Part shown: in pieces, positions 4,101 through 22,186 of the stretch | Position numbering within the stretch: position 1 is the stretch's first letter | How the letters are laid out: each line of letters opens with the position of its first letter | From: a virus | Virus record (IMG/VR): IMGVR_UViG_3300028888_004798 | DNA: 22,774 nt | Strand: one strand, 5' to 3' | Notes under the pieces: generated by a model | The model's input: the letters and a program-made list of their open reading frames with translations, nothing else | Databases searched by the model: none | Told to the model about the DNA's origin: nothing | Translations under genes and position numbers: made by a program

Positions 4101-5205
4101 AATCATATGTGAAGATGTGCATTTTAGGTAATTCTGCATAAGGATTAGAATCCCCCCAATGTTCTATATCCCACTTTCTTTTAGCTTCTTGTTCCATCAT
4201 ATAATCCCAAGTATAAATTTCATCATCTTCATACTCGTCTTTAATATTAAATGGAGTCCCAGATAATTCCAAACGTTTTGTATTATCTTTAATTAAAGCT
4301 TCATAAACACTTTGACCTAATTCAGTTCTTGTTCCTTCATGTGCTTCATCAATAATTACTAAATCCCAATCCAAATCGAAAATTTCATCATTTTTATCAA
4401 AAGTTCCACCAACAGTCGTAGAACCTCTTAAATCTTGGATAGAAGCAAAATAAACAAAATTCCTTCCAGAATCTATTAAGTCTTTTAATGAATTATAACC
4501 TGTTCCTTTAGAACCATATTCATAACCATCCCCATCAAAAAATATTTTATTAAAATCATCATACCAACTTTTATCAACAACCGGGCGATGAGTTATAATA
4601 ATACTTTTTTCAAATTTTTCACGTTTAATAACTTCTAAGGCAGCTAATGTTTTACCAAAACGCATTTTTGCATTCCATAACATGCGTGGATATTTCTCAA
4701 ATCTTTTAACAGTTTTTTCAATAGCCTCTATTTGTTCTGGCCTAAATATAATTGGATTATAATCCTCTGAAGTAGTAGTGCCTGAAAGATTATGTTTTCC
4801 ATCTTTTTTAGCTTTAATTGCTTCTATAGCTATATTAAGTCCCACTTCAAACCATTCTTTAGCATTACCTATTTCTTTTCTAGGATATCCTGAATTGATT
4901 AAAATGTTATGAACATCATGATCTCTAAAAGATTCTGATTTAGATTTATCATCAGATTCAGTAATAGCTAGTTCAGTATGTAAAAGAATATATTCAATAC
5001 CTGCTGTTTGAGTATAATGATTTATTCTGTTTTTAGCTGAGGCATTCAAATCGTCACAGTTAGGGGGTAACTGATTAGGAGTTTTACTAGTATTAATAGT
5101 TGTGTCTCCTATTTTTAACAGATTTTTATGTGCTTCATCATTTATAGTAAAAATATAAATGAGTTTGTACTTAAAAGTTTTTTCAAATTCGATTGAACTA
5201 GGCAT
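1186..5205 (-). CDS. Restriction-modification fusion: N-terminal putative GIY-YIG/T5orf172-like nuclease, SF2 helicase/ATPase, Eco57I-like N6-adenine methyltransferase and TRD
   Basis: Walker A-like NAKMRFGKT, IIDEAH, helicase-C motifs LSCGKLTTGVTV and YLQTIFRAQSP; ETVLTPWRVV; catalytic motif IV FDAIVGNPPYQE; C-terminal TRD-like region. Confidence 0.85.
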   Translation of the reverse strand: MPSSIEFEKTFKYKLIYIFTINDEAHKNLLKIGDTTINTSKTPNQLPPNCDDLNASAKNRINHYTQTAGIEYILLHTELAITESDDKSKSESFRDHDVHNILINSGYPRKEIGNAKEWFEVGLNIAIEAIKAKKDGKHNLSGTTTSEDYNPIIFRPEQIEAIEKTVKRFEKYPRMLWNAKMRFGKTLAALEVIKREKFEKSIIITHRPVVDKSWYDDFNKIFFDGDGYEYGSKGTGYNSLKDLIDSGRNFVYFASIQDLRGSTTVGGTFDKNDEIFDLDWDLVIIDEAHEGTRTELGQSVYEALIKDNTKRLELSGTPFNIKDEYEDDEIYTWDYMMEQEAKRKWDIEHWGDSNPYAELPKMHIFTYDLGELLNTVQYNDIIDKAFNFKEFFRTWTGNIEKDSMEVPPDKQIGDFVYEDDVISFLNLISREDENNNYPFASKKYRDLFKHSFWLLPGVAEAKALSKLLRGHPVFSGFDIVNVAGDGDDEDPNDEALKLVMDAIDDAGEDGYTITLSCGKLTTGVTVREWTSVMYLSGSNLVSASNYLQTIFRAQSPCNKFGKIKTDCYVFDFAPDRTLKVVAEAVHLSTKAGESTDSQRKALKKFLNFCPVISIDNTGMKPYNVPKMLQQLKRAYADKAVINGFNDSNLYNNNLLTLTDVDLLDFNELKKAIVSSKTNSDIKNIDINITGLTEEDIEKVGEIKTKPEDERTPEEEALVDKEDELEKQKKDAILILKEISIRMPLLIFGADIPIDYDFKLRDFLNDDIVDQESWEEFMPVGVTKELFEKFIKYYDEEVFVAAGNKIRRTIKDADNLPIEERIQRITEIHSYFKNPDKETVLTPWRVVNMHLSDCFGGWCFYDDSFDFVDGLLDEPRFVSRGFLTSNVFNENSKILEINSKTGLYQLYTSYNIYKNKVDSYSMVLSIDSQWDIWFDIIENNIFIICKTPMAKDIARRTLLGFREGKFNACYFDDMLNQFKNNDDELITNISDPNFWQIKGDGKMKFDAIVGNPPYQEMDGGASASAKNVFQHFVDVSKKLQPNYISLIIPARWYTSGKNLDDFREDMLKDKHIIKLFDYVSSKDIFPTVEIKGGICYFLRSENEERPCEIVFHNNGEIQYSTRYLHDLGDIYIRDERIISILHKIMDNDFESFDSIVSSRKPYGLTGDFFKNPKKYDLPEIFNNKNNSTDLSIFGLENRIRVFKYVPQDYPLPKKDGLYKYKLFVNRTYGNGKLGQDNRPTPVIGKPGELCTETFLQIGSFESEIEAQNALKYMETKFFKLLVGTNKTTQDAPKRVYSFVPMQDFTESSDIDWNNSVSEQLYEKYNLSPEEQDFIEKIIVR

Positions 5206-6178
5206 TATTTTTCCCTTCTTTGATTAAATCTATAAATTTAATTGTTTTTCCACTATCCCAATCTTTAATTTTACAATAAGTTCCATTATGTTTAGTTATT
5301 TGATTTTTCTTACATCCAATACATTCAATTTCTGTTTCTTCAGGACCCATTAATGTATTAATAATTTTTTTACCATTTTGACATGAAAATGGAACCACAT
5401 ATTTTAAAGCATCCATTTGAAAGATATTCCAAGAAATAATCTCCGCAATATCATATAAAAAATCATATTCTGGATTCTTATCAAATTTTTCAATGAAATA
5501 ATCAACAAAAGTAAATAAAATATTTTCTCTTGCTAAAAGAAGACTGTCTCCTTGAAATTCAAAAGCATAAATATTTTCAAAAGATTTTTTAGCCCAATAT
5601 AACCAATCATCTTGATTATTTGTATTTTCAGAAACAACTCTTAATTTTCTATCTAAAAGACCAATTCTGTTTTTTACTTTGATAAATTCTCCTGTGACCG
5701 CATCATACCTACTTACAAGATAAGGTGCTTCACCGCAAGTTATTTCTAATCTAGTGTCAAGTATATAATCTTGCCAGGTTTTTCCTTTAGGGAATTTTAT
5801 TTTATTAATATTTGGTTCCCATGTCTCCCCATTCTCTTGATTGAAAACGTTTTTACAATTGAACCATTTTTCATCAATTAGATTATTCTGTTTATTACAT
5901 ATCCAAGAAGGAGTAAAAACTTCTCCACTATCTCGGCTTCTTGTTGTTTGTTGATCATCTGTTTTTTTAATTCTAGGTTTAATAACATCTCCATTGTCCC
6001 CAGTGATTAATTCAGGACATATTCTTGAAGTTATTTCATAACCTTCACCATAATCTTCATAATCACTTGTTGCCCAAATGATATTTTTATTGGAGGAACG
6101 GTCTTTTAAAAGAATTTGCAATAATTCTGGATTGGATTTTTTTATAAAATTTTCTTTAATATCAATTCCCTGTTGCAT
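5198..6178 (-). CDS. Methyltransferase-like partner subunit of the RM locus (SAM-binding half, no NPPY motif seen)
   Basis: GEVFTPSWIC, LEITCGEAPYL (motif I-like), IYAFEFQGDSLLLARENI, WNIFQMDAL. Overlaps the start of the 1339-aa gene by 8 bp. ATG 6178 has a GGAGAATAGG RBS; alternative start 6193. Confidence 0.75.
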   Translation of the reverse strand: MQQGIDIKENFIKKSNPELLQILLKDRSSNKNIIWATSDYEDYGEGYEITSRICPELITGDNGDVIKPRIKKTDDQQTTRSRDSGEVFTPSWICNKQNNLIDEKWFNCKNVFNQENGETWEPNINKIKFPKGKTWQDYILDTRLEITCGEAPYLVSRYDAVTGEFIKVKNRIGLLDRKLRVVSENTNNQDDWLYWAKKSFENIYAFEFQGDSLLLARENILFTFVDYFIEKFDKNPEYDFLYDIAEIISWNIFQMDALKYVVPFSCQNGKKIINTLMGPEETEIECIGCKKNQITKHNGTYCKIKDWDSGKTIKFIDLIKEGKNNA

Positions 6179-6404
6179 TATCCTATTCTCCATTAATTTA
6201 TTAGGAAGTAAATAAGTATTTTAGATAGACATTACTAGGCTTTCACAGTCAATTTAATCATCTTAACAATAGTATAAACTTGTTACTATGTATATTATGA
6301 AAACAATATATATTTTTATATTACATACAACATTACATATCGTCATTTCTTTAAGCTAGTTAAATTGAAGAAAATATATAGTAGTGGTTATAAATAATAT
6401 AATA

Positions 6405-6543
6405 ATGAAAACAATACTTTCACTCCAATATTGTTTTCATGAGGGGAATAGGTCGCAAACACGTTACTAAAATAAATTTAAATTTAAGCTTAATTTAGTA
6501 CAGATAACTTTATTACTATACTACGGACGGCTTATTTCCCTTC
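6405..6543 (+). ncRNA. Candidate structured RNA upstream of the capsid operon
   Basis: Perfect 12-bp hairpin 6405-6416/6429-6440. 15-bp stem 6441-6455/6528-6543 with three G-U wobbles and one bulge encloses the TACTAAA/TTTAGTA stem. TATA-like TTATAAAT upstream, T-rich tract downstream. Confidence 0.35.
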
Positions 6544-6689
6544 TATCCTTTAGTTCTATTTTTAAATAACAATTTAATTATTATATCCTCTTTTCAAAAT
6601 TTTTTTAAAAGTAGCTATTATATAGAGATATTTATATAATATAAATAATAAATTAAGTAATAGTAAAATATTAGTGGAGGACATATATA

Positions 6690-7193
6690 ATGGCAGATTC
6701 TATTATCTTATTAGAAGAGCGTAAAGAAGTCACAACTTTCTTATTAGATGAAGGTGCGATTACTGCAACTACTGTAACAACTCCTACTGGTGAAACTCCA
6801 GGATATGAGTATGCAGGCAATAAAATTAAAGTCGATGATGTCGTAACATTATCAGCTAACTCAGATATCGGAAAACCTACAGTTAAAAAATATACTGCAG
6901 CTGAAGGCGAAATCATTTTAGGTATTGCAGTTAACGATCCAGTTACCATGACCGGAGGCAGAAGAAAAACTTCCATCCTTGTATTAGGTCATTTATTCAG
7001 ATTGAAATTAGCTAGCGGTTTATCCAACATTGCCGTTAATGATCATATTGCTTTAACATCCACTGGAGCTATTAAGTCTGATGACGGCGAATATATTGCA
7101 ATGCACCCTGTAGCAAGTTCTGACGATTACAAATACATTGAAGTATTCAGACCATATGATATTGGCGCCACTGGCGAAAGTGGTCAAACATAA
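6690..7193 (+). CDS. Probable capsid decoration/cement protein (beta-tulip, DUF2190-like)
   Basis: Position directly before the capsid genes; pattern DDVVTLS...ILGIAVND...SILVLG...IAVNDHIALTSTGAI...YIAM...IEV resembles cement proteins. GGAGG RBS. Confidence 0.6.
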   Translation: MADSIILLEERKEVTTFLLDEGAITATTVTTPTGETPGYEYAGNKIKVDDVVTLSANSDIGKPTVKKYTAAEGEIILGIAVNDPVTMTGGRRKTSILVLGHLFRLKLASGLSNIAVNDHIALTSTGAIKSDDGEYIAMHPVASSDDYKYIEVFRPYDIGATGESGQT

Positions 7194-7205
7194 AGGTGAT
7201 AATGA

Positions 7206-8144
7206 ATGATTACAAAAGGAAATAATACTAAAGTTCAAAACGAGGTAATAGCTCAAACTATTACTGATGAAACTGCAAAAAGGTTAAAGTTGGCCAGATT
7301 GTTTCCTAAGCAAGAAATTAAAGAGAACTCAGATTATTATACTTACTTTAGACAAAACATTAATCTTGATGAAGCTATTAAAAAAGGATTGCTCGGTGAG
7401 GCCAAAGACATTGCCCCAGGTGCAAGCCTTCAAGAATTAAACATAAGAAAACCAGTAACAGACACTATCAGCATAGATACTGTTGGTGGAGTCTTGAATG
7501 TCAATAAAGATGTGTTTGATTCAGACATTGTTTCATTTGAGGATTTATTAGGTGATGTAGCTACCGTTATTGCAAATCGTATTGAATACAACATTTACGA
7601 TACAATAATCAGCTCACCAAATGTTCCTGCATACAATACCACCCAAACGGATGACACTATGGATGCATTCGGTAAATTCGTTATCAGTGCACAGGAGGCA
7701 TTCAAAGGTAACGCTGGAGCAGGTGCAGACTTAACAATAATGGCAGAGTCTTACAAAACATTATCATACGTTAAACAATTAGCGTACAGTTCTAACAAGT
7801 TAGTTCAACCGGTAGAAGCTATTAAAGAATACTACGGTATTGACAACATTGATCTTTTAGGAACAACCCAAGCTGACGGCGGATCATTAATAGGTGAAAA
7901 ACAATATATCGGTTTTGATCTCCGTAATGCACCGTTAACAGTATTGTATTCTAAATCTTCAGGAACTACTGTTGCGCCTATTACATCCGATGAAAACATT
8001 GCAGACTTCTATCCACTCATTGAAATCATGAGAAAAGATATTTACGATGAATTACCTCAATACACCAAATTATTTATACAAAGTAAAGTAGGAATATTAT
8101 TAAATAAACCAGGTCTTGCTTTGAAAGGTACTTGCAGACCATAG
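7206..8144 (+). CDS. HK97-fold major capsid protein, paralog 1
   Basis: 312 aa. E-loop/spine-helix pattern IAPGASLQELNIRKPVTDTISIDTVGGVLNVNKDVFDSDIVSFEDLLGDVATVIANRIEYNI. GGTGA RBS; follows the decoration-like gene. Confidence 0.75.
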   Translation: MITKGNNTKVQNEVIAQTITDETAKRLKLARLFPKQEIKENSDYYTYFRQNINLDEAIKKGLLGEAKDIAPGASLQELNIRKPVTDTISIDTVGGVLNVNKDVFDSDIVSFEDLLGDVATVIANRIEYNIYDTIISSPNVPAYNTTQTDDTMDAFGKFVISAQEAFKGNAGAGADLTIMAESYKTLSYVKQLAYSSNKLVQPVEAIKEYYGIDNIDLLGTTQADGGSLIGEKQYIGFDLRNAPLTVLYSKSSGTTVAPITSDENIADFYPLIEIMRKDIYDELPQYTKLFIQSKVGILLNKPGLALKGTCRP

Positions 8145-8157
8145 GAGGCGATAGTTA

Positions 8158-9084
8158 ATGTTAACCAAAGGAAATGATGCAAAAGTACAAAATGAAGTCA
8201 TGGCACAGATAGTGGCCGATACTTCAGCCAAATGGATGAAATTCACCAGATTACTTCCAAAGCAAGAGATAGAAGAAAACTCACAATACTATACCTATAT
8301 GTCTCAAAGAGTCAACATCGAGGAAGCTATTCAAAGCGGCGTACTCGGTGAGGCCAAAGACATTGCTCCTGGCGCAACCCTTCAGGAATTAAACGTTAGA
8401 AAACCAATCAGCGAAACCGTATCCATTGACACTATCGGTGGAGTCTTAAACGTTTCAGCTCAAATGCTGGATTCCAATTTAATCAGCGTTAATGACATGT
8501 TACAGGATGTAGGTATCCTCATCGGTAGAAGTATTGAAAAGGCAGCTATTGATATGATAATGAATTCATCCAAAGTAGCTACCTACAACTTCGAATCTGG
8601 CGATGACACTGGTATGACCATCCTTAAAGCACAGGAAAAATTCAAAGAAGGTGCCGGAAGCTATGCCAACTTAAACAGTATGGCTGTTAGTTACAAATCT
8701 CTCACTACATTAAAATCTGACATATTCTCAAGTAACAGACAAGTTGAACCGGTAGAATTAATCAAAAGCTATTACGGCGTTGATAATATTGATATCCTTG
8801 GAACTGCTGTTTGCGATGGTGGTTCTGAGATGGGTGACAAAACATATATTGGTATGGACTACATTAACCCAGGAATGAAATTGTTATACTCCAGGACTAC
8901 AGGAACAACCGTTGCACCTTTAGGACCTGACGGTGAAATGTACGATTTCTATCCATTAATCGAATTCATGCGCAAAGACATACGTGACGAATTGCCTATG
9001 TATACAAAACTATTCATACTTTCCTCCGTCGGTGTGTTAATGAACGCACCTAATAGAATAATCAAAGGACAATTCAGAGCATAG
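8158..9084 (+). CDS. HK97-fold major capsid protein, paralog 2
   Basis: 308 aa, colinear paralog of 7206..8144 (about 67 of the first 100 residues identical by manual alignment; shared DFYPLIE.MRKDI.DELP.YTKLFI). GGAGG RBS. Confidence 0.75.
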   Translation: MLTKGNDAKVQNEVMAQIVADTSAKWMKFTRLLPKQEIEENSQYYTYMSQRVNIEEAIQSGVLGEAKDIAPGATLQELNVRKPISETVSIDTIGGVLNVSAQMLDSNLISVNDMLQDVGILIGRSIEKAAIDMIMNSSKVATYNFESGDDTGMTILKAQEKFKEGAGSYANLNSMAVSYKSLTTLKSDIFSSNRQVEPVELIKSYYGVDNIDILGTAVCDGGSEMGDKTYIGMDYINPGMKLLYSRTTGTTVAPLGPDGEMYDFYPLIEFMRKDIRDELPMYTKLFILSSVGVLMNAPNRIIKGQFRA

Positions 9085-9239
9085 AGCCATAGTAAAAAAT
9101 CTCCTAAATATATTCCTTTCGTTTGAGAGCGTGTAGGAACAAAAGAATATTAAATCTCAATAAAGATTATGTTCGTGGAGTTTTAATTGTTTTTCTTCAC
9201 TGACATCTTCTGCTAAGAGTATTTAACTCCGAATCTTCA

Positions 9240-9272
9240 ATAAGCTGGGAATCAGACCCTCTCCCAGCTTAT
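9240..9272 (+). terminator. GC-rich hairpin, probable terminator or processing site after the capsid operon
   Basis: Perfect 11-bp inverted repeat ATAAGCTGGGA / TCCCAGCTTAT with an 11-nt loop, followed by CTATTTCT. Confidence 0.5.
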
Positions 9273-9332
9273 CTATTTCTAAAAAAAATATATGTAATAT
9301 TAATAGCTATAATATATACCAGAGGATATAAG

Positions 9333-9731
9333 ATGAAATTATTTTTAGATAATAAAAATTCGTATGCAACAACAATAACAGTCAAAGGTAAGGAAATCAA
9401 ATTGCTATTAATAGAATCAAGCATATTAATAGACAGTTCACAAATAGCAACACTATTCGACAGAAAAGAAAGAACAGTTGCAGCCAAAGTCCAGAAATCC
9501 AAACTGGAGAAATACGAAACCACCAACGTTAAGCTATTGAAAAGCTACGGCCTAATGAATCCTAATGCAGTTAAACCAAAACCATTCTACGATTTAAGAC
9601 AAATCATGGAAGGCCCCGGCAGGTACTATTTCAAACAAGCTGACGAACTTGATCTCATAGACGTTATTGTTAATGTGGCCATTGGAAAACATCGTGAGTG
9701 GATCCATAACAGGGACATTGACAAATTTTAA
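9333..9731 (+). CDS. Hypothetical protein, possibly Bro-N/ORF6N-like DNA-binding
   Basis: 132-aa ORF; ITVKGKEIKLL...ILIDSSQIATLFDRKERTV resembles antirepressor-type N-terminal domains. Stop codon abuts repeat copy A. Confidence 0.55.
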   Translation: MKLFLDNKNSYATTITVKGKEIKLLLIESSILIDSSQIATLFDRKERTVAAKVQKSKLEKYETTNVKLLKSYGLMNPNAVKPKPFYDLRQIMEGPGRYYFKQADELDLIDVIVNVAIGKHREWIHNRDIDKF

Positions 9732-9843
9732 TCCACATTAACATCGGCCATTAGCTATTGAAAACTTATTTTTTGAAACCCTTTCATATATATCACGGTT
9801 TAAATTCAGAATTGAATTGTGAAAACCCTTCCGTTAACGTTAA
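9732..9843 (+). repeat. 112-bp dispersed repeat, copy A
   Basis: TCCACATTAAC...GCTATTGAAAACTTATTTTTTGAAACCCTTTCATATATATCAC...CCGTTAACGTTAA; same register as copies B-D. Confidence 0.85.
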
Positions 9844-10011
9844 TGTTGAATCAATAAATTAATAGCTATTGATTGCACCTATAGATTATCTCATCCGGAA
9901 CTTCAAATATTCATTCTAGTAAGAAATATATTTTTCCAGTAATGAAATATCAAACGTTAATGTTAATGTCATAATCATCCAACCATTACTTACTATTTCT
10001 CTATATACCTA

Positions 10012-10058
10012 TTGCGACTCGTTTCACTCGTCGCAACCTGTCCAACTTCGTTGGACAG
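10012..10058. other. Twin GC-rich hairpins, both with TTC loops
   Basis: TTGCGAC-TC-GT-TTC-AC-TC-GTCGCAA immediately followed by CTGTCCAAC-TTC-GTTGGACAG (perfect 9-bp stem). Confidence 0.7.
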
Positions 10059-10177
10059 CTTATTTTTTAAATATCAAAATGTTTATATACATCGAATTAC
10101 AGAGTAAGTATATACATTAATAATGTAATTACATTTATTAAGTAACTACATTAATTAATATCAAGGAGGAATTTAAC

Positions 10178-10735
10178 ATGACTGACGACCAGGACAATTA
10201 TGAAGCGTTAATTGAAAAACATGCTCAACGCCAAATGAACCTTAAAGAAGCAAAAGAAGATTACATTCAAGAAGAACAGACACCACGAAAACAGATAACA
10301 GTTAAAATATTCCCGAATACTCACAAAGCTTTAAAATTAATAGCAACTGCCAAAGACACCAGTTTAGAAAAGATTGCAACATCCATTATCGAAGCTAAAA
10401 CAAAAGACTTAGATATTGTTGAATATGTAAGAGAAGCAGTTGAAAACACTGAAGCATTTGAAGATGGCTTTGATTGGTTACATAGAGAAGACATTGACAA
10501 TTCAGCTTATGATTTAAACGATAAGTTATTGAATAAAGGCAATCCACGAAAAAGAATCAATGTTAAAGTTGATTTAGAAACTCACAGAAAATTAAGGATA
10601 GTCTCAGCTATTCAAGACAGATCACTTGATAAGATTGTCTGCTCCATCATTGAATATGAAGTTGGAGAGAAAACTCATATTGACACATCCAAATTAATGG
10701 ATGAAATACTAGAATCAATTAAAGATAAAGAATAG
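10178..10735 (+). CDS. Protein with two tandem ribbon-helix-helix (CopG/Arc-like) domains
   Basis: Internal duplication PRKQITVKIFPNTHKALKLIATAKDTSLEKIATSIIE / PRKRINVKVDLETHRKLRIVSAIQDRSLDKIVCSIIE. GGAGG RBS. Confidence 0.75.
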   Translation: MTDDQDNYEALIEKHAQRQMNLKEAKEDYIQEEQTPRKQITVKIFPNTHKALKLIATAKDTSLEKIATSIIEAKTKDLDIVEYVREAVENTEAFEDGFDWLHREDIDNSAYDLNDKLLNKGNPRKRINVKVDLETHRKLRIVSAIQDRSLDKIVCSIIEYEVGEKTHIDTSKLMDEILESIKDKE

Positions 10736-10766
10736 CTAACGTTAATGTTAGTGTTGGACTTGGAGA

Positions 10767-11927
10767 TTAAATTAAAGTAACCTTATCCTTCGGAACATAT
10801 TCTATTGTTTCGGTAGGTTCTTTTTCCACCTCTATCTCTTCAAGTTCAACAGGTTCTTTATCTTTAACAATAGTATTATGCCTACCACTTATTAAAGTGT
10901 TTACACGGGTTAATGACTTTGTATCTCCAAGTAAGTGATTATAATCTTTAGCTAATTCATTGTATTTCAATTTATTAGCATTTACTTCCTGAGTATAAGC
11001 TATTAGCATTTGTGCTTTTTCTTCAGTATGCTTAACTTCCATTTCAGATTTTTGTTTGGAAAGTTTCATATCAACTTCAGCACTTAATTTATCTAATTCA
11101 AGTTTAGCATCTTTAACTTTATCTTTCAGGTTATCAATTTCTTCATAATGTTCTTTTGGAGGAATATAATCTTTTAACATTGATAGAGATTCAACTTTTT
11201 CAGTTAATTCATCTATATGTGTTTGTTGCTTTTGGATGGTTTCTTTTAACTCTTTTTCTTTATTAAGAAAACTGGACTGGAGTTCGTCCTTAGTTTCCTT
11301 ATAGTTATCGTTAATGCCAATAATATTTTGATTCAGTAACTTATTGGTTTCATTAATGTGAATATTTGCGGTCTTCAGCTGTTCGTTGTCTTTGATCAAT
11401 TCTTCATTTCTGTTTGCAAGATCATCTGAAGATTCCATAAGATTTTCAAATGCATTCTTCCAATATTCAACTTCGCTCTCCTTGGTTTTCAATTCTTCTT
11501 TTAAAGTTTCAATATCATCTACGGATTCAACTTTAACATCCTTGGAGGATTCAAGTTCTTTAGCTAGTGAATCAACTCTTGTTACAAGTTCTTTAATTGT
11601 ATTGTCCTTTTCTGAATTCTCATTGGTTAATTCAGTAATGGTTTTATCCTTTTCCTGAAGCTGTGCTTTTAAATCTTCAGCGTCAGTGTCAGTTGTTCCT
11701 TTAGCTATTATGCCTTCAAGTTCTTTTATTCTGGCTTTGTATTCATCTACATTGTCTAATTCTTTCATTACATCAAAGCGTTGCTCTTCTGATAAAACAT
11801 AGACTTTTTCGCCAACATCAAAAATAGTATTGCTGAATCCTATCCTGTTTGCATTTGCAGTATTTTTCTTTACTTCAAATTCCAGGCCGATTCCTTTATC
11901 ACTTTTTTCAAGAGTTTTTTCATCCAT
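10767..11927 (-). CDS. Long coiled-coil protein with a small N-terminal beta domain (possibly AbrB/SpoVT-like)
   Basis: 386 aa with about 280 residues of E/K/L heptad-rich sequence; N-terminal LEFEVKKNTANANRIGFSNTIFDVGEKVYVLS. GGAGTG RBS. Confidence 0.65.
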   Translation of the reverse strand: MDEKTLEKSDKGIGLEFEVKKNTANANRIGFSNTIFDVGEKVYVLSEEQRFDVMKELDNVDEYKARIKELEGIIAKGTTDTDAEDLKAQLQEKDKTITELTNENSEKDNTIKELVTRVDSLAKELESSKDVKVESVDDIETLKEELKTKESEVEYWKNAFENLMESSDDLANRNEELIKDNEQLKTANIHINETNKLLNQNIIGINDNYKETKDELQSSFLNKEKELKETIQKQQTHIDELTEKVESLSMLKDYIPPKEHYEEIDNLKDKVKDAKLELDKLSAEVDMKLSKQKSEMEVKHTEEKAQMLIAYTQEVNANKLKYNELAKDYNHLLGDTKSLTRVNTLISGRHNTIVKDKEPVELEEIEVEKEPTETIEYVPKDKVTLI

Positions 11928-11986
11928 CCATTTTCACTCCAAATCCTTAACATACATATCTTTATAACAACTATATTTTATAGCTA

Positions 11987-12686
11987 TTGCAATTAATTGC
12001 AATTTTATTGCAACAAAAATTGCAACAGTTGCAACTGGAATTGCAACTCGATTTTGAAAATTGCAACTTTTGAACAATGTTGAATACTGTTTAATTTGGC
12101 CCCTATTCGGAAAAATAGAAACGACAATTGCAGTTTTTGGGGGTAGGTTGTTTGCTTGCAGGAAGGTGCAAGTATTGTAATACATATATCGTAATATATA
12201 CATTTCCTTGGTATGCCAGAAAACCCACCCCAGACGGGTGTTTTTGGACATCCATCTGTCCCAGTAGCTGTTCGGCACTTTCGTAATATACTACAATAAT
12301 TTATATACATTCGTGTAAACATTCACAATTGCAACTGTTGCAACTTTTAAATACTGAATTGCAACTTGCATTAAAATGGGGTCAAAAACGGATATGCGGG
12401 GTTTTTCGATTTTTGGAATTGCAATTAATTGCAATAAAATTGCAATTCTTAGGGGGAAAATTGCAACTAAATTGCAATTTCTCATTGACGTTAAATTTAA
12501 CATTCTTAAAATTACACTTGTTCAGTTATCAATAACTTTTTTAATAAAATATTGAACAAACTAATAATTAAAAATTGCAATTAATTGCAACTCTGATTCT
12601 GGTTTTCAGGGTGAAAATTTCAGGAGTTGCAACTGAGTTGCAATAAAGTTGCAACAAAATTGCAATAGTTGCAACTGGAATTGCAA
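11987..12686. repeat. Array of 23 TTGCAA palindromes in five clusters around a GC-richer core
   Basis: Counted at 11987, 11997, 12008, 12020, 12029, 12041, 12061; 12329, 12338, 12359; 12419, 12429, 12440, 12461, 12472; 12575, 12585; 12627, 12638, 12649, 12660, 12669, 12681. Confidence 0.95.
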
Positions 12687-12816
12687 CACCAAAAACTGTC
12701 ATGACATATAGACTAACTAATACAAAAACTAACAATTGAAGTAATAAAATATTGTATTACAAAAATTAGTTACGCTATATAAAATTAATAATACTATGAT
12801 ATATAAATAATATAAT

Positions 12817-13626
12817 ATGTCAAGTAATAGTATAAGCTGGACTCAATTCTGCCAGGGCATGAACTCAATATGTTACTGGCTCATCCAGAACAAAAAGAAA
12901 TATAAGAAACGTGACTACTACCAAATACTAAAACTGAAAGGTAGTTGTGCAGATGTTGAAAAGAAAGCAAAGAAACTAGGAAACAATAAGCTAGTGGCAA
13001 TGTATACAATGGCGGTGATTAAAGACAATAAGTCATTGGATTTCCTTCCAAACTACGTGACATTAAAAAACGGCCTTCAGATAGATAAAGCTGAATACAT
13101 TGACATGGCCATAAGGACTGAAGCATACATTACAGCCAACAAAAGACTTCCAGCTATTGTATATAGGATGTCCAAACTTCCTGACTATAAAGACACCACA
13201 ATGAATTTCTTTATCAAAACCTTCAACTATAAAGGCAATACCATAGATGAGGCTTTAGCTATTATATCCAAAAAGGAATTATATAGCAAGTACTTTGATT
13301 CACAAAAAACAGACAAACAAACCATTAATGATGCAAGTAAAGGTAAAGGCTCCAACTGTGTGGACTGGGGACAAGTATATTACCGTATCGCCAAATCATT
13401 AGGCTATGAGGTTCAATTCGTACATGTTAAATGTCGTGTAAGTGGTACTGGCCATATCAGATTAAGGCTCAGGCACAAGAAACATACTGAAGGAAACTGG
13501 ATCAACCGTGACCCTGCAGCAGTTGCAGATACAACATCCGGAAATGTTAGATCCCTCTGGTGTGAAGACGGATATGTTATAGCTATTGATCCAAGTTGGA
13601 TATTTACAGATTTATATTCCATTTAA
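12817..13626 (+). CDS. peiW: Pseudomurein endoisopeptidase (PeiW/PeiP-like endolysin, peptidase C71)
   Basis: Pseudomurein-binding repeat LPNYVTLKNG..IDKAEYIDMAIRTEAYITANKRLPAIV; catalytic triad motifs SNCVDW (Cys), GTGHIRL (His), NRDPAA (Asp). Confidence 0.85.
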   Translation: MSSNSISWTQFCQGMNSICYWLIQNKKKYKKRDYYQILKLKGSCADVEKKAKKLGNNKLVAMYTMAVIKDNKSLDFLPNYVTLKNGLQIDKAEYIDMAIRTEAYITANKRLPAIVYRMSKLPDYKDTTMNFFIKTFNYKGNTIDEALAIISKKELYSKYFDSQKTDKQTINDASKGKGSNCVDWGQVYYRIAKSLGYEVQFVHVKCRVSGTGHIRLRLRHKKHTEGNWINRDPAAVADTTSGNVRSLWCEDGYVIAIDPSWIFTDLYSI

Positions 13627-13871: not shown

Positions 13872-13981
13872 TTGACATTAACGGCTGGGGTTGGCTATTC
13901 AAAACTCACTTTCTGAAACCCTTTCATATATATCACAGGGGAAACAAGATTGATTTGAGAAATCGTGGCCGTTAATGTTAA
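13872..13981 (+). repeat. 110-bp dispersed repeat, copy B
   Basis: TTGACATTAAC...GCTATTCAAAACTCACTTTCTGAAACCCTTTCATATATATCAC...CCGTTAATGTTAA. Confidence 0.9.
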
Positions 13982-14110
13982 TGTCCATTTAAGTAAATTA
14001 AAAGAAAAAAAGTAACTATTATAATTTTAACATTAATAATTCAATAGAGCAAATGCAGAATCACTTAATAAAATAAAAAAAAGAAGTTGTTAAAAATTTA
14101 ACAACAAAGT

Positions 14111-14559: not shown

Positions 14560-14671
14560 TTAACATTAACATCCTGCATTAGCTATTCAAAACTAACTTT
14601 CTGAACCCCTTGCATATATATTGAGGTCGCAAATCAAAATCTATTTTCCAAAACACGACCGTTAATGTTAA
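14560..14671 (+). repeat. 112-bp dispersed repeat, copy C
   Basis: Perfect 11-bp terminal inverted repeat TTAACATTAAC (14560-14570) / GTTAATGTTAA (14661-14671); core GCTATTCAAAACTAACTTTCTGAACCCCTTGCATATATAT. Confidence 0.9.
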
Positions 14672-14681
14672 AGTAGGCTAA

Positions 14682-17027: not shown

Positions 17028-17834
17028 ATGGGTCAGAAAAATTCAGACGTTAAATACTTTTTAGAGCAACATGAACAAGAAATAATAAACTGTTGCAAGA
17101 AAGGAATGAGTAACAATGAAGTCCGTAAACTACTAAAAACAAAATATGGAAGAGATGTCGCAGATAACACCTACAGAAAATTCAAAGCAAAACTGAAAAT
17201 TAAAAAAACTGATTTCCTGGAAACATTACTGGATGAAATAACAGTAATGAAAGAATCCGGTGCTACTGATGCTAACATTAGAAGATGGTTAGCAGAAGAT
17301 CATGATGTTGAAATAAGCCGCTCAACTTTCTCCAGATTCAAGAAAAAATATAACATAACAGATCAAGAAAAAACTCCACATGATAAAAAATCATTGACAA
17401 ACAGAGCTATCAGCCAAAAACAAATACTAGACAATAACGTTCATCAAGATAATATTGACATAGCTATTGACACCATATTGCAGCAACAGGTCACTGACAT
17501 TCAGACAGGACTGGACAATCTCGACAGGATAACCCGAAACGCTATAAGCATTGAAATTGATTTTGAAAAACTGGAAAGAGAAATAAGACTCAATGCTAGC
17601 GAAAAAAATATTGGAAGATATTTGCTTGATTTTACTGAATTAAAAATACGTTACTTGGAATTATCTGTTAGAACATTCGAAGCCAAAAACAAATTATTCA
17701 AAGATGAAATGGACAGACTATTTAAAAACAGAGTCCTTGAACTAGAAGATAAAAAAATTGAAATATCTCAAAAAGACATTATGGATGAAATAGAAGTTCT
17801 TGCAAAACAAATAGATGATAATAATGTACAATAA
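17028..17834 (+). CDS. Probable terminase small subunit (two tandem HTH-like repeats plus a helical oligomerisation region)
   Basis: Overlaps the terL start; repeats FLEQHEQEIINCCKKGMSNNEVRKLLKTKYGRDVADNTYRKFKAKL / FLETLLDEITVMKESGATDANIRRWLAEDHDVEISRSTFSRFKKKY. TerS call rests on position and architecture only. Confidence 0.55.
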   Translation: MGQKNSDVKYFLEQHEQEIINCCKKGMSNNEVRKLLKTKYGRDVADNTYRKFKAKLKIKKTDFLETLLDEITVMKESGATDANIRRWLAEDHDVEISRSTFSRFKKKYNITDQEKTPHDKKSLTNRAISQKQILDNNVHQDNIDIAIDTILQQQVTDIQTGLDNLDRITRNAISIEIDFEKLEREIRLNASEKNIGRYLLDFTELKIRYLELSVRTFEAKNKLFKDEMDRLFKNRVLELEDKKIEISQKDIMDEIEVLAKQIDDNNVQ

Positions 17835-19233
17835 AGATGGCCAATTCTATTTAGGTGCAAGAGACAAAGCTATTCTTCAAAAATGTGTATATGAAAATCC
17901 ATACATACCATTTAAACCATTTGTCAAACAAGCTGAGATGATTCTAGCAACAGAAAAGGAAGTTCTGATTGGTGGTGCCGCTGGAGGTAGTAAATCAACC
18001 AGCCTGTTAATGAGAGCCTTATTTTATGTTCAGGACGATGTTAATGAATACCATGCATTAATATTGCGTAGAACATTATCTGATTTGAAAAGGAAAGGTG
18101 CATTGATTCATAAAGCCAGCCAATGGCTTAACCGTAAAGAGATTCAAAGAGACCCAGCTATTCGGCCGAAGTGGGATGGTACTGAACATTCATGGACATT
18201 TCCAAACGGCAATAGTTTAACCTTTGGATATTTACGTAACATTAACGACCTCGATACTTATCAGGGTTCTGAATACCAGTTCATTGGCATTGATGAGTTA
18301 ACGCAACTGGAACGCTTTAAATATATTTATATGCGTTCACGTGTCCGAAAAACTAAGGACAATAAACTTCCAACACAGTTAATGTGCTCAAGTAATCCTG
18401 GTAAGCGTGGTAATAAATGGGTCAGGGAAAGATTCATCGAAAAGATAGATGCAGACATTCAGGACAAAGACCAGATAAGATTTATCAGCTCCAGTTATGT
18501 CGATAATGTTTATCTGGACAGACAGGACTATGAAGAATATCTTATGGGCTTGGATAGAGTTACACGTGAGCAGTTAATGAACGGTAACTGGTATGCTTCA
18601 GTTAAAGGTGAGCTATTTGATGAATCAGATTTCCACTTGATCTCTCATGACGAATTTTTGAAAATACCTATCATCCGGATCATCAGGTATTGGGATCTTG
18701 CTGCAACTGAAGTTCTCAACGATGACAAACTCAAAGGTAATGATCCAGATTATACCGCAGGAGTGTTACTGGCCAAAGATTTAAACGGCAATATTTACAT
18801 CCTTGATTCTTATGAGTTTCAATTGGAGTCACGGAATCTTATTAATGAAATCATTAACACTGCAGCGCGTGATAAAGCGGATGTGCAGTATATAGAACTT
18901 GACGGTTCCACTGGTAAGAACTTTGGCCTGTTAATTATTGATGAATTAAACCGAAGAGGATTTACTACAGGCACTGGAAATTCACGTGAGAATAAAGTTG
19001 ACCGTGCCAGAAGAGTTTCAGCTGACATCCAACTTAACGGAATTTTCCTGGTTGGGAAGGATAGAACAGGGTTTACTAAAAAATGGGCCATGGAATTTCT
19101 TGAAAAAATTACAGCATACCCTAACGAATCCATTCACGATGACTGTGTTGTTGCATTCACCGGTGCATATGAGAAACTGGCTACTGAAAAGCAACCTCAA
19201 AGAGTTGATGTTGATAAATGGTATTCTACATAA
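17815..19233 (+). CDS. terL: Terminase large subunit (Terminase_6/T4-like ATPase plus RNase H-fold nuclease)
   Basis: Walker A GGAAGGSKS, Walker B FIGIDELTQ, coupling motif SSNPG, nuclease YWDLAA...HDDCV. Alternative start 17824. Confidence 0.93.
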   Translation: MIIMYNKDGQFYLGARDKAILQKCVYENPYIPFKPFVKQAEMILATEKEVLIGGAAGGSKSTSLLMRALFYVQDDVNEYHALILRRTLSDLKRKGALIHKASQWLNRKEIQRDPAIRPKWDGTEHSWTFPNGNSLTFGYLRNINDLDTYQGSEYQFIGIDELTQLERFKYIYMRSRVRKTKDNKLPTQLMCSSNPGKRGNKWVRERFIEKIDADIQDKDQIRFISSSYVDNVYLDRQDYEEYLMGLDRVTREQLMNGNWYASVKGELFDESDFHLISHDEFLKIPIIRIIRYWDLAATEVLNDDKLKGNDPDYTAGVLLAKDLNGNIYILDSYEFQLESRNLINEIINTAARDKADVQYIELDGSTGKNFGLLIIDELNRRGFTTGTGNSRENKVDRARRVSADIQLNGIFLVGKDRTGFTKKWAMEFLEKITAYPNESIHDDCVVAFTGAYEKLATEKQPQRVDVDKWYST

Positions 19234-19250: not shown

Positions 19251-19932
19251 TGGACATATTGATGGACATACTATGGACTATACTGTGGACTTTATGGACT
19301 GTCTTATGGACATATTATGGACTGCATCGTGGACTGTTTGTGGACTTGAAGTGGGACACCATGGACACCCAATGGGATTATCATATGGATTATCTGAGGG
19401 ACTAATTATGGACAAGGTAATGGACATATCGTGGACTATGTTATGGACTAACTATGGACTATACTATGGACTGGTTATGGACTACTTGATGGACATACTA
19501 TGGACTATGTTGTGGACTAACTATGGACTAACTAATGGACAAAGTGTGGACTATATCGTGGACTGTTTATGGACTAAGTTGTGGATGGACTGGATGATGG
19601 ACTGTTTATGGACTGATGGATGTATGGATGGACTAATGGACATACACGAATCAGGTATACCCCCCATGTATCAGAAATCTAAGGTCGATATGAACTTCTT
19701 TTTGTAGGGTGTCCATAACTATGGACTGATTATGGACTATACTATGGACTGATTATGGACTGGAGTATGGACTGATTTTTCATAAAATTGTTGTCTGCGA
19801 ACCTAGTCGAGCCGACATAACATTGTTATCTTTCCAAAATCAACGCAATTTTCAGGGGGTACACATTTTTTGGGGCAGTCCACGTGGATGGATGTATGGA
19901 CTACAGTCCACGTTATGGACTTCCGCGTGGAC
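19251..19932 (+). repeat. Phased array of TGGAC pentamers (38 forward, 3 reverse) starting 18 bp after the terL stop
   Basis: From 19409 to 19570 the starts alternate exactly 12 and 11 bp for 14 intervals; the 6-7 nt spacers vary in sequence. Confidence 0.95.
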
Positions 19933-20174
19933 TGTTTACCCGGCAACAATTCACATCGACCTCCATAAAAAAATCCCGCGAAAAAATCGATACAATAATT
20001 TTTCAATTAAAATTCAAATAAAATTATTTTAAAAAAATAATTAATAATAATAAATATAGGAAATAAAAAAATAAAATAAAATAAAATATTATTAAATTTA
20101 AAGATATTTTACAATTTATTTATATAGTAGTTTATCTAAATATAAATTTAACTTAATGGAGTGAGTGATAAATC

Positions 20175-20351
20175 ATGGCGATTCAGGAACCCACTAAGCA
20201 GAAATCATTTAAAATTTCAGAAGATTTAGCTATTGAATTTGAAATTCAAGCTAAGAGAAGTAGGACAAAAGAAGTTGACCTGATTACAAGGTATATTCAA
20301 GAAGGTTTAGAAAGAGATCAGAATGAAGATAAACAATCAACATTAGATTAA
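20175..20351 (+). CDS. 58-aa ribbon-helix-helix (CopG/Arc-like) protein, absent from the ORF track
   Basis: MAIQEPTKQKSFKISEDLAIEFEIQAKRSRTKEVDLITRYIQEGLERDQNEDKQSTLD has a strand-helix-helix pattern; GGAGTGAGTGA RBS upstream. Confidence 0.75.
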   Translation: MAIQEPTKQKSFKISEDLAIEFEIQAKRSRTKEVDLITRYIQEGLERDQNEDKQSTLD

Positions 20352-20538: not shown

Positions 20539-20673
20539 ATGAATACGGAAGTGTTAAGTATGGAAAGTATTAATGAAGAATCTTCCATGAGATTTAGGGA
20601 AGATAAAGATATATTATTTGTATTAGCAAATGCTAGGAATGTTTTAAAGGCTTTTTATGGGAGGATGTTATAA
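20539..20673 (+). CDS. Possible 44-aa ORF translationally coupled to the next gene
   Basis: Its stop TAA (20671-20673) overlaps the next ATG (TAATG); no other support. Confidence 0.25.
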   Translation: MNTEVLSMESINEESSMRFREDKDILFVLANARNVLKAFYGRML

Positions 20674-21140
20674 TGGCTGAAAAGATTGATTTCCATATTA
20701 AAGCTGACAAGTCAAAGACTGTTAAAGCTAGAGAATTATCTGGTTTAACTAACAGGGAAATTTTTGAGTTAGGTTGTAAGGCTGCAATCGAACAGCATCA
20801 AAATGTTTTAGATACTGAAATTTTAGAACTTAATGAAGCAATGGATAAGGTTAATGAATTAACGGCATCAGTCAGATCCCGATTAAGAGATATGGAAGTT
20901 CCAACAAAACCTAGTGATGATTCTGATTCTGACAGTGAAGATATGATAAGAAATCACATACCGCTTGAACTATTCAAGGAAATGGTATTGTATTATATGG
21001 ATACTTTTGGAATAACTGATATTCAGGAACTCAGCAGCAAAAACAAAGAAGTCTTCAGATTCTTTTTAATTAACCTGGCATATCACGATATGAATATGGA
21101 TGATGTAAATAAGTTATATGAAGATATGAATTCAGAATAA
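20673..21140 (+). CDS. RHH-like N-terminus plus coiled coil and C-terminal helical domain
   Basis: FHIKADKSKTVKARELSGLTNREIFELGCKAAI resembles 16343 and 16767; GGGAGG RBS. Confidence 0.7.
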   Translation: MAEKIDFHIKADKSKTVKARELSGLTNREIFELGCKAAIEQHQNVLDTEILELNEAMDKVNELTASVRSRLRDMEVPTKPSDDSDSDSEDMIRNHIPLELFKEMVLYYMDTFGITDIQELSSKNKEVFRFFLINLAYHDMNMDDVNKLYEDMNSE

Positions 21141-21352: not shown

Positions 21353-22186
21353 TTATATTGACTTAACAGAATAATCTATAACTCTAAGGTCATGAATACA
21401 AGTATAATCTGTATCTGGAGCAATATTACAAACTATCATTATTACATCACTATAATTAAAGTTATACACAATTGTTGTTTTAAGTCGTCCCATGTCTGAA
21501 TTGATTGTTGCATCAAAACAATAAGGTAAACTTTTGTTTTGAACAATGTTTGTATATCCTTGCATTTTAAGATATTCTTTTAATAGTGGGATGTTCTTTC
21601 GTGCATTATTATCGAAATGGCTAGATTTATACTCCATAACATATATCTCACAGGCCCTATCACTTTTTGATAATGCAACAATGGACTTGTGGAATTCATC
21701 ACTATCCTGGTAACTACCAATGTCATAATATTTTGGATAATCAAAAGATAAACCATTCTTTTTAATATGTTTTGTATTTGATGTGCTATTTTTTATAAGA
21801 TCTTTTATTTCGTTTAATTTTTTTTCTGATAACTCTCTTTCTGCTTTAGGACTGAAATCATAACCACAAAAACTACATTTCTTGGCGCTTTCACTTAATT
21901 TGCGTCCACAATCAGGACAATATCTATTGAACTTATATGCTGCATCAGAAGAGTTATATCCTTCAAATTTATAATCACAGTATGGGCATTTTTTTGCTAC
22001 ATTATTTATTTTATGCCCGCAATCCGGACATTTTTTCCAGTTAACATTAGGTTTAGTGTTGTAATTTTTTCTACGTATTCTAGTCCGTTTATTTGTATAA
22101 GAATTGTTTGATTTGTCTCTGCTTCCTAATGCTGCACAACATACTCCTACAATTATGAGTACTAGCAAAATTAATAGTATTGACAT
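21353..22186 (-). CDS. Membrane-anchored double zinc-ribbon protein with a C-terminal PsbP-like domain
   Basis: N-terminal hydrophobic helix; CPDC..CPYC and CPDC..CSFC; GLSFDYPKYY. GAGGT RBS. Confidence 0.8.
   Translation of the reverse strand: MSILLILLVLIIVGVCCAALGSRDKSNNSYTNKRTRIRRKNYNTKPNVNWKKCPDCGHKINNVAKKCPYCDYKFEGYNSSDAAYKFNRYCPDCGRKLSESAKKCSFCGYDFSPKAERELSEKKLNEIKDLIKNSTSNTKHIKKNGLSFDYPKYYDIGSYQDSDEFHKSIVALSKSDRACEIYVMEYKSSHFDNNARKNIPLLKEYLKMQGYTNIVQNKSLPYCFDATINSDMGRLKTTIVYNFNYSDVIMIVCNIAPDTDYTCIHDLRVIDYSVKSI

Follow-up and report, generated by a model that had tools for sequence, protein, structure and literature searches.

Several plasmid partition systems of types II and Ib use centromeres made of short repeats that are read by ribbon-helix-helix (RHH) proteins, e.g. 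R1 ParR-parC with 10 iterons of 11 bp, pSK41 ParR, TP228 ParG-parH and the heptads of pSM19035 omega. Segregation without a nucleoside triphosphatase (NTPase) has also been described: StbA of R388 has no NTPase and acts at stbS, where 2 x 5 repeats of 9 bp with 2-bp spacers recur every 11 bp and each dimer spans two of them; pSK1 Par is another single-protein segregation system (10.1101/2022.04.29.490116). Here we describe a locus of comparable layout in the IMG/VR virus record IMGVR_UViG_3300028888_004798, whose 22,774 nucleotides we call the window and which is part of a Methanobacteriales tailed virus with a Methanobrevibacter host. The locus is an array of TGGAC cores directly 3' of the large terminase gene terL, followed by the genes p58 and p155. 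We hold it very probable that the array is a selected protein-binding lattice read by p155. Our favoured reading of its purpose is tentative and falls somewhat short of an even chance: array, p58 and p155 would form a centromere-like cassette without an NTPase for episome maintenance. All functional statements below are inferred from comparative genomics.

The likeness to StbA/stbS is a match of architecture only, with short direct repeats on a cycle of ~11 bp upstream of a gene for a binding protein. StbA and Par have helix-turn-helix (HTH) domains whereas p155 is RHH-like with a long helix, and stbS has 10 repeats whereas the arrays described here have 27-64 cores. The step alternating between 12 and 11 bp, the second small RHH gene and the archaeal tailed virus as carrier are further differences. 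No homology of p155 to StbA or Par was found by Pfam, NCBIfam or PDB sequence search. The RHH centromeres resemble our locus, as we read it, in their cooperative dimers on tandem direct or inverted repeats near one helical turn, their helical nucleoprotein and their autoregulated own operon downstream, but they work with ParM or ParA motors and none is encoded here; p58 and p155 do not match the ParR, ParG or omega families. A third comparison is oriP of Epstein-Barr virus (EBV), where one dimeric viral protein, EBNA1, occupies ~20 tandem sites of variable copy number near a smaller dyad-symmetry element and tethers the episome to chromosomes without a motor. It differs in its eukaryotic virus, unrelated proteins and 30-bp unit, and tethering by p155 is only a hypothesis.

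The window has 31% G+C and carries TGGAC 55 times on its plus strand, where ~10 per strand are expected from base composition over the whole 22.8 kb. The ~700 bp of the array (19251-19932) hold 38 of these and the other 22 kb hold 17. The array and its upstream neighbour terL, which is outside the cassette, are laid out as follows:

17815..19233, plus strand: terL, large terminase, 472 amino acids (aa); phrog_979 with E 3e-83, and Pfam Terminase_6N, Terminase_3 and Terminase_6C
19251..19345, plus strand: variable left block, part 1; 9 TGGAC cores in steps of 12,11,12,9,12,11,12,11
19346..19408, plus strand: degenerate stretch with the variants TGGGAC, TGGAC, TGGGAT, TGGAT and GGGAC
19409..19574, plus strand: variable left block, part 2; 15 cores in exact 12/11 steps, copy number different among relatives
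19586..19641, plus strand: start of the fixed part; 5 cores at 19586, 19598, 19609, 19629 and 19637, steps 12,11,20,8
19650..19710, no strand: conserved non-repeat centre; AATCAGGTATACCCCC (palindrome GGTATACC and a C-run), then GCTTCTTTTT.TAGGGT
19711..19772, plus strand: inverted pair GTCCATA-AC-TATGGAC, then the right block; 5 cores, steps 11,12,11,12
19815..19872, no strand: non-repeat element with hardly any variation; palindrome ATAACATTGTTAT, then CTTTCCA..ACGCAATTTTC, followed by a G-run and TACACA
19878..19932, no strand: palindromic and convergent sites; GTCCACGTGGA, TGGACT-AC-AGTCCA and two direct cores 12 bp apart (19916, 19928)

A sequence-only reading of this DNA had listed the starts of the lattice, and every listed start is a TGGAC on the plus strand. 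Its exact 12/11 alternation runs through all 15 cores of 19409-19570 with zero exceptions, and the recurrences at 19251-19286, 19295-19341 and 19722-19768 and the flip of orientation at 19711-19726 are where it placed them. Its end point of 19772 was too early: the array reaches 19932 and includes two further palindromic pairs, at 19878-19888 and at 19897-19910 (half-sites 19897/19906), so that three inverted or palindromic pairs lie within it. Tandem Repeats Finder reports periods of 11, 12 and 23 in the array. The 12-bp step is invariant and the alternate step is 11 bp, now and then 9 bp in this array; therefore the unit of the array is a pair of sites 12 bp apart. The extended core reads (T)(A/G)TGGAC(T/A) and the spacer positions carry 0.1-0.5 bit each, with a stricter flank (TATGGACT) at the sites preceding a 12-bp step than at those preceding an 11-bp step. 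Paired sites are confined to the array, with none elsewhere in the window, which points to one dedicated site and not to a regulon. A 144-aa open reading frame (ORF) overlaps the array at 19273-19707. We rejected its coding status and take the array as non-coding, since this ORF is not kept even in a 98%-identical copy, which has ORFs of 139 and 89 aa instead.

We found the lattice in 16 independent viral loci, on genomes and metagenome contigs. A genome scan recovered it in 5 of the 103 species genomes of the host genus and in none of the 211 genomes of other genera in the family, and the reversed control pattern had 0 matches in the same scan. Similar arrays in related viruses, which the earlier reading had suggested looking for, thus exist, and its worry about an assembly artefact is refuted by the same architecture in independent assemblies from six genomes and many metagenomes. 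It had not recognised the lattice from known archaeal viruses either, and the deposited relative NC_133304.1, which has the lattice and is the same virus as an IMG/VR contig that our searches returned, is unannotated in this region. Array, p58 and p155 are syntenic in 16/16 loci. The cassette stands directly after terL in 15 of the 16, and in L080 it follows portal and scaffold-like genes.

The copies differ mainly in one place. Between 27 and 64 cores lie upstream of the gene among the relatives, and it is the terL-proximal block in 12/11 register that varies in copy number. The 9-bp hiccup following the 4th core is common to C4 (the contig with the 98%-identical copy, in the nearest genome G001), vir323 and G232, and the degenerate stretch 19346-19408 is missing in vir323. 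The distal series is largely fixed: steps of 16,12,11,20,8, an 85-bp gap with GGTATACCCCC, steps of 11,12,11,12, a gap of 129-139 bp, and steps of 19,12. In the window, a step of 16 bp leads from the final left-block core (19570) to this fixed part; most TGGAC-type copies repeat the series 16,12,11,20,8, and most relatives the core number and spacing of the right block. The element in the 129-139-bp gap (19815-19872 in the window), which comprises the palindrome ATAACATTGTTAT and a G-run, is nearly invariant; its G-run/TACAC repeats GGTATACCCCC imperfectly in inverted orientation. Beyond the distal series, the copies share an AT-rich tract, a TATA-like box, p58 and p155, in this order.

In the positionally homologous part of 8 copies, the invariant columns number 91 of 95 in cores, 17 of 77 in spacers and 120 of 268 elsewhere. 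These counts argue that selection acts on the cores and their phase rather than on the spacers. The sequence-only reading had proposed selection on geometry in place of recent slippage, and this agrees with the 16 copies, in which cores and phase are kept while spacer letters and copy number vary. The same conservation strongly supports its suggestion of a nucleoprotein scaffold.

The largest array is that of L153 (ENA ERZ15610059 contig, ~5060-6330), with 64 TGGAC cores within 1.3 kb upstream of p58; gene callers placed two spurious ORFs inside it. Other searches gave candidates that we rejected. Single matches to the TGGAC lattice in IMG/VR are chance occurrences in unrelated contigs. TGGGAC-lattice scans of IMG/VR and JGI metagenomes returned only unrelated, mostly higher-GC repeats, including an iteron set of CTTGGGACA x5 in L173. 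The central element CAGGTATACCCCC, searched in the host genus, gave beyond the known arrays only chance or host matches, including metal-transporter loci and a conserved host element CAGGTATAACCCC.

Four relatives (L080, L149, L176 and L177), reached via the most divergent p155 homologues, have the core TGGGAC instead of TGGAC in an array of identical architecture. The 12-bp step is again invariant in them and the other step is 9-11 bp; the non-repeat centre is also found in L080. Their palindromic sites read GTCCCATGGGA, the core switching together with that of the direct repeats, and hence we consider both to be sites for the same reader. Only three columns of p155 separate the TGGAC from the TGGGAC arrays, and all three are in the N-terminal strand (K4, I5 and K10 in the window). 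At position 10, the TGGGAC arrays go with Arg (4/4) and the TGGAC arrays with Lys, Ile, Leu or Gln (12/12).

We tabulated the residue at position 10 in 120 p155 homologues, where K, I, R, L, V, C and Q occur, before inspecting their DNA. The blind prediction held: both unseen R-type contigs with an array proved to be TGGGAC, and the I-type and L-type contigs TGGAC. A pairing of Arg with the extra guanine would be chemically sensible. The TGGGAC-type p155 proteins are not one clade, as the tree needs 3 changes, at least 2 of them forced by well-supported branches (approximately unbiased test, p=0.013), and shared ancestry does not explain the rule. The other small gene, p58, was tried as core reader and rejected: L149 (TGGGAC) and L151 (TGGAC) have the same N-terminal strand, and none of the p58 columns tells the two types apart. 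The nearest neighbour of each TGGGAC-type p58 is in fact a TGGAC-type p58. Since p58 lies between the array and p155 and yet is unlinked to the core type, the coupling of array and p155 is best explained by function.

The same co-variation bears on a reading of the array as RNA. A read-through RNA of terL with ~38 AUGGAC motifs could be structured or act as a sponge that titrates an RNA-binding factor, given that all direct cores are on the terL-sense strand and that no terminator-like site follows terL on that strand. However, the inverted copies switch core together with the direct ones, as is expected of double-stranded DNA sites, and the topology predicted for p155, which co-varies with the core, is that of a DNA-binding RHH protein. 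Rfam 15 gives no match in the array (one sub-threshold hit is outside it) and the consensus fold is weak, with an alifold covariation term of -0.03. We regard this reading as hardly credible. A promoter and terminator consensus scan, whose model is bacterial, found nothing notable.

The downstream part of the cassette comprises:

19973..20150, no strand: conserved ATCCCGCGAAAAAATCGATA, then an AT-rich tract of ~160 bp, A+T ~90%
20119-20126, plus strand: archaeal TATA-like box TTTATATA, read from the sequence and kept in relatives; putative promoter element
20158-20169, plus strand: ribosome-binding site GGAGTGAGTGAT for the p58 operon, read from the sequence and kept in relatives
20175..20351, plus strand: p58, 58 aa, predicted RHH protein from AlphaFold2 (AF2) topology and atlas clusters
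20539..20673, plus strand: p44, a small weakly conserved ORF between p58 and p155
20673..21140, plus strand: p155, 155 aa, proposed array reader from its AF2 model and strand/core co-variation

In the AF2 model of p155, an extended N-terminal strand (DFHIKAD) leads into a short and then a long helix (27-73), and an acidic disordered linker connects these to a four-helix domain at the C-terminus. The N-terminal topology is RHH-compatible, and the atlas leads are weak (0.75-0.79). The p155 family comprises at least 123 clusters, with no match in Pfam, PHROG, NCBIfam or a PDB sequence-profile search and no homologue among 72,556 plasmids. VIA-align of the model returned generic long-helix matches only (Z at most 5.1), which are uninformative for small-terminase (TerS)-like or centromere-binding folds. 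For p58, the AF2 model shows an extended N-terminus and two helices in an RHH-compatible topology, and in the atlas the ten closest named clusters all belong to RHH families (scores 0.92-0.94); Pfam, PHROG, NCBIfam, a PDB sequence-profile search and Foldseek of the model against PDB gave no match. An orphan R-type homologue of p155 was observed in L175 (Logan SRR14000560 contig, 5649-12274). It has neither array nor p58 and sits in a chromosomal island beside a transposase-like gene, a Gabija-like pair (OLD/TOPRIM ATPase and UvrD helicase) and an HpaII-type restriction-modification (RM) system.

As RHH proteins are typically repressors, p155 and p58 might do no more than form a long filament on the array that silences the adjacent late structural operon, and possibly terL read-through, during carriage. 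The array lies between terL and the string of p58, p155, portal and structural genes, upstream of the conserved TATA-like promoter, and StbA is a centromere binder that doubles as repressor (10.1101/2022.04.29.490116). On the other hand, even the nearest core stands ~190 bp upstream of the TATA box, with most cores at a distance of 400-870 bp, and ~38 sites are far more than an operator would need. Relatives that lack the array still regulate the same structural genes, and a link with the loss of integrase, described below, would be left unexplained. We consider a pure silencer or operator quite improbable; silencing is possible as a secondary role, and omega, ParR and ParG likewise combine centromere binding with repression.

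The array-bearing genomes are circularly permuted contigs of ~34-37 kb without host flanks. G211:C25 has a terminal overlap of 141 bp, G232:C24 starts and ends at adjacent positions, and NC_133304.1 was deposited as circular. No tyrosine integrase was found in the array-bearing genomes. No partition NTPase of the ParA, ParM or TubZ kind and no replicase came up when the larger ORFs of the window, the remainder of C4 and, in the circular G211:C25, most ORFs of 90 aa or more were scanned against Pfam and PHROG. The genome G001 also harbours three integrated sister proviruses, whose terL is 80-82% identical and portal 92-95% identical and in which the p119-p268 genes are present; none of the three has the array or p155. 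These sisters are opened at the terL|portal junction or have cargo there, and the slot holds a tyrosine integrase at a distance of 6-12 kb. The terL-to-portal slot is thus occupied either by the cassette or by the integration module.

A similar exchange is known from cluster A mycobacteriophages, where parABS replaces the integration cassette at a collinear position in some of the closely related temperate phages, which are extrachromosomal, parS-L and parS-R are blocks of eight direct 8-bp repeats, and ParB diversifies, plausibly avoiding incompatibility (PMC7157519). The likeness to RedRock/Miko parABS lies in a maintenance cassette and an integrase alternating in one slot, to which correspond here the two core and reader types; the differences are a ParA ATPase with an HTH ParB, much shorter arrays and bacterial hosts. 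A different set of repeats was seen in one integrated sister, L043 (G001:C8 57227-58726), where AAAACCAT / ATGGTTTTT stand upstream of portal, with a G-run and then TTTACACAAAAAA. This set adjoins a possible replication-type gene, and the integrase is 7 kb further left.

The sister proviruses also bear on packaging. The array could be a pac or cosB site, wrapped round a small-terminase ring of p155 or p268 so that TerL is positioned for the first cut, and the two core types would then be packaging specificities. Known terminase sites, i.e. the R-sites of lambda and 21 cosB with Nu1, SPP1 pacL/pacR and the P1 pac hexamers, are likewise repeated short motifs by terminase genes, read by a small DNA-binding oligomer with co-varying site and reader specificities, as between lambda and phage 21 cosB/Nu1. 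The position directly after terL in 15/16 loci agrees with this, phased direct repeats at about one helical turn suit wrapping round an oligomeric ring, and the outline of p155 (N-terminal DNA reader, long oligomerising helix, C-terminal domain) resembles small terminases. But those sites have 3-7 repeats and are indispensable throughout a lineage, present in all viruses sharing the terminase, whereas the array is missing from sisters with the same terminase block. As the three G001 proviruses share the p119-p268-TerL block and portal without array or p155, packaging in this lineage needs no cassette. By position the TerS candidate is p268, whose gene overlaps the start of terL and whose product shows a weak HTH of transposase type; only weak HTH matches were found for it, and p119 has no Pfam, PHROG or NCBIfam match. 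The cassette of L080 is not beside terL, no assembly ends at the array save at repeat-induced breaks, and the replacement of an integrase slot would be illogical for a pac site. We therefore judge a packaging site improbable.

A plasmid-type origin is a better rival, though in our estimate still an unlikely one. The cores would be iterons bound by p155 as initiator, the inverted pairs near the promoter would autoregulate, the AT-rich DNA of 19990-20150 would unwind, and the left block would control copy number, titrating the initiator by handcuffing. The layout has direct repeats, inverted half-sites, an AT-rich tract and a downstream gene for a binding protein. Pfam, PHROG and NCBIfam scans found no Rep-family protein. 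Moreover, an episome needs an origin and no recognisable replication initiator exists elsewhere in the virus, the cassette is missing from the integrated relatives, and the core and reader types would suit replicon incompatibility groups too. Against an origin, p155 lacks NTPase, winged-helix Rep or primase features. Known iteron origins have 3-9 iterons of 17-22 bp, so 27-64 sites of 5 bp are atypical, and an AT-rich tract is nothing unusual in intergenic promoter DNA when the genome has 31% G+C. The GC skew of the circular genome tracks the coding strand only, with no switch point at the array, and array-less relatives must replicate lytically without the cassette.

The G-run and TACACA had suggested an origin with host origin recognition boxes (ORB), an idea that we rejected after defining the mini-ORB of the host, (G)TTACACTTGAAA(T), in the DNA upstream of orc1/cdc6. 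This mini-ORB is absent from the array region, where no match within 3 mismatches occurs except in low-complexity AT-rich sequence, and the TACACA element differs from it at 6/13 positions. Host Orc1 is therefore not recruited via a standard ORB. The mini-ORB itself marks a candidate oriC of the host in L181 (G001:C43, 3400-3730), where three copies, with both orientations represented, stand in the intergenic region upstream of orc1/cdc6.

A second phased array in the window, with 23 TTGCAA palindromes in 700 bp (11987-12687), is just as good a candidate for the origin. It occurs in every array-bearing genome (23-24 copies) and is missing at the homologous position upstream of the pseudomurein endoisopeptidase gene (Pei) in the integrated sister proviruses. 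It is flanked by Pei and by a 386-aa SMC-like coiled-coil gene and a double-RHH gene (10178-11927). We regard the TTGCAA array as a candidate for the origin, for a lysogeny switch or for the true centromere. Upstream of the double-RHH gene itself (10178-10735), a lone inverted TGGAC pair, GTCCA-N7-TGGAC, stands at 10040-10056; chance alone would give ~0.3 pairs of this kind, and it may mean nothing.

The sequence-only reading had offered pac enhancer, centromere or origin for the lattice. Its pac option is opposed by the array-less sisters and by L080, a host-ORB origin was not found, and the integrase slot turns the balance to its centromere. It is this swap with the integrase, together with the NTPase-less precedents, that leads us to favour a centromere-like, motor-less episome-maintenance site. 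As in partition systems, the repeats stand by genes of putative dimeric DNA-binding proteins, p58 and p155, the array being 240-920 bp upstream of p58. We propose that the array is the cis-acting site of a three-part cassette, by which the virus would persist as a free circular episome via partition or tethering without a dedicated NTPase. Dimers of p155 would read each (A/G)TGGAC(T/A) through the N-terminal RHH-type strand, where co-variation shows the strand-core rule and the fold is predicted. One p155 tetramer, or two dimers joined via the long helix, would occupy each 12-bp site pair, with pairs every ~23 bp, and ~15-30 p155 units may polymerise along the variable left block. With a mean period of 11.5 bp the protein track would spiral round the DNA or wrap it in a right-handed superhelix; comparable tracks are found in ParR-parC and phi29 p6 complexes. 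The fixed distal part, i.e. the palindromic sites, the inverted G-run/C-run pair and the invariant 57-bp element by the p58 promoter, might nucleate or bound the complex and also autoregulate the p58-p155 operon, and p58 probably binds elements independent of the core. The C-terminal domain of p155 could link the complex to a host structure or pair sister episomes, and copies would thus be distributed at division. A more specific version appears possible but rather doubtful: motor-less tethering like that of EBNA1/oriP would replace integration, Lys or Arg of p155 would set TGGAC or TGGGAC and thereby compatibility groups, and the TTGCAA module would be origin or switch.

Several points weigh against a centromere-like cassette. 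Binding, the episomal state in pure culture and segregation are all deduced from sequences, and the RHH fold of the p155 N-terminus comes only from predicted topology and weak atlas leads. The K/R rule is drawn from only four TGGGAC arrays. No NTPase motor was found in the ORFs scanned, so the cassette does not belong to partition types I-III and the segregation force is unexplained, and 27-64 sites exceed known centromeres. Iterons by an AT-rich tract with an autoregulated downstream gene would fit an origin equally well. The roles of centromere and of origin or switch may be split between the TGGAC and TTGCAA arrays. Free circular contigs in metagenome-assembled genomes could also be replicating or chronic virus binned with the host.

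Almost nothing is known about persistence of archaeal tailed viruses without integration. We found no description in the literature of a partition or episome-maintenance determinant for them, and the MSTV1 paper describes an integrated provirus. If the centromere-like reading is true, the viruses of Methanobrevibacter, whose hosts are the main methane producers in rumen and gut, include a widespread phage-plasmid-like lineage that carries a compact NTPase-free maintenance cassette. In the more specific, EBNA1-like version, both arrays together would make up a plasmid-prophage maintenance apparatus without earlier description in archaeal Caudoviricetes, and NTPase-free segregation by a new mechanism. 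The cassette would differ in its mechanism from other repeat centromeres, as it has no motor and belongs to an archaeal virus, with a two-step lattice of great length and a switch of one residue and one base. The pairing of Lys/Arg with TGGAC/TGGGAC is a ready specificity switch, and could serve as a model for DNA reading by RHH strands and for the origin of incompatibility groups. Motor-less segregation (StbA, pSK1 Par) is mechanistically unsolved, and a long regular archaeal lattice would be a good structural target. The cassette could also be used as a stabilising module for the scarce genetic tools of Methanobacteriales.

The other genes of the window include Pei (12817-13626), a collagen-like tail fibre (3-869), capsid paralogues and an RM enzyme. 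Contig C4, with its 98%-identical copy, runs from the array into portal, capsid and tail genes and then round to the tail fibre, and so the array is internal to the viral genome, with terL on one side and the structural module on the other. At 7206-9084, two paralogous genes of capsid-like type stand in tandem (312 and 308 aa; Phage_capsid_4) and are kept in all relatives. Portal and the remaining structural genes lie beyond the window end; the head module is unscrambled and the window is a circular permutation. The stretch from p155 to portal is a hypervariable cargo slot, with an insertion sequence (DDE_3 transposase) in L176 and other small genes in L153, L177 and L179. In the window, a 1-kb insertion relative to G001:C4 (21281-22296) carries a gene for a double zinc-ribbon membrane protein (21353-22186, minus strand). 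A repeated element of ~110 bp (core CCGTTAATGTTAATGT) lies between accessory genes at 9753-9846, 13883-14036 and 14581-14674 and at G001:C4 1-155; as C4 starts and ends in copies of it, such copies break assemblies. In the circular relative G211:C25 (L073:11733-12740), a gene product of 336 aa joins MCM N-terminal and OB domains to an HNH nuclease. It is without the AAA+ helicase core and seems an odd cargo gene, adjoining a type III RM system.

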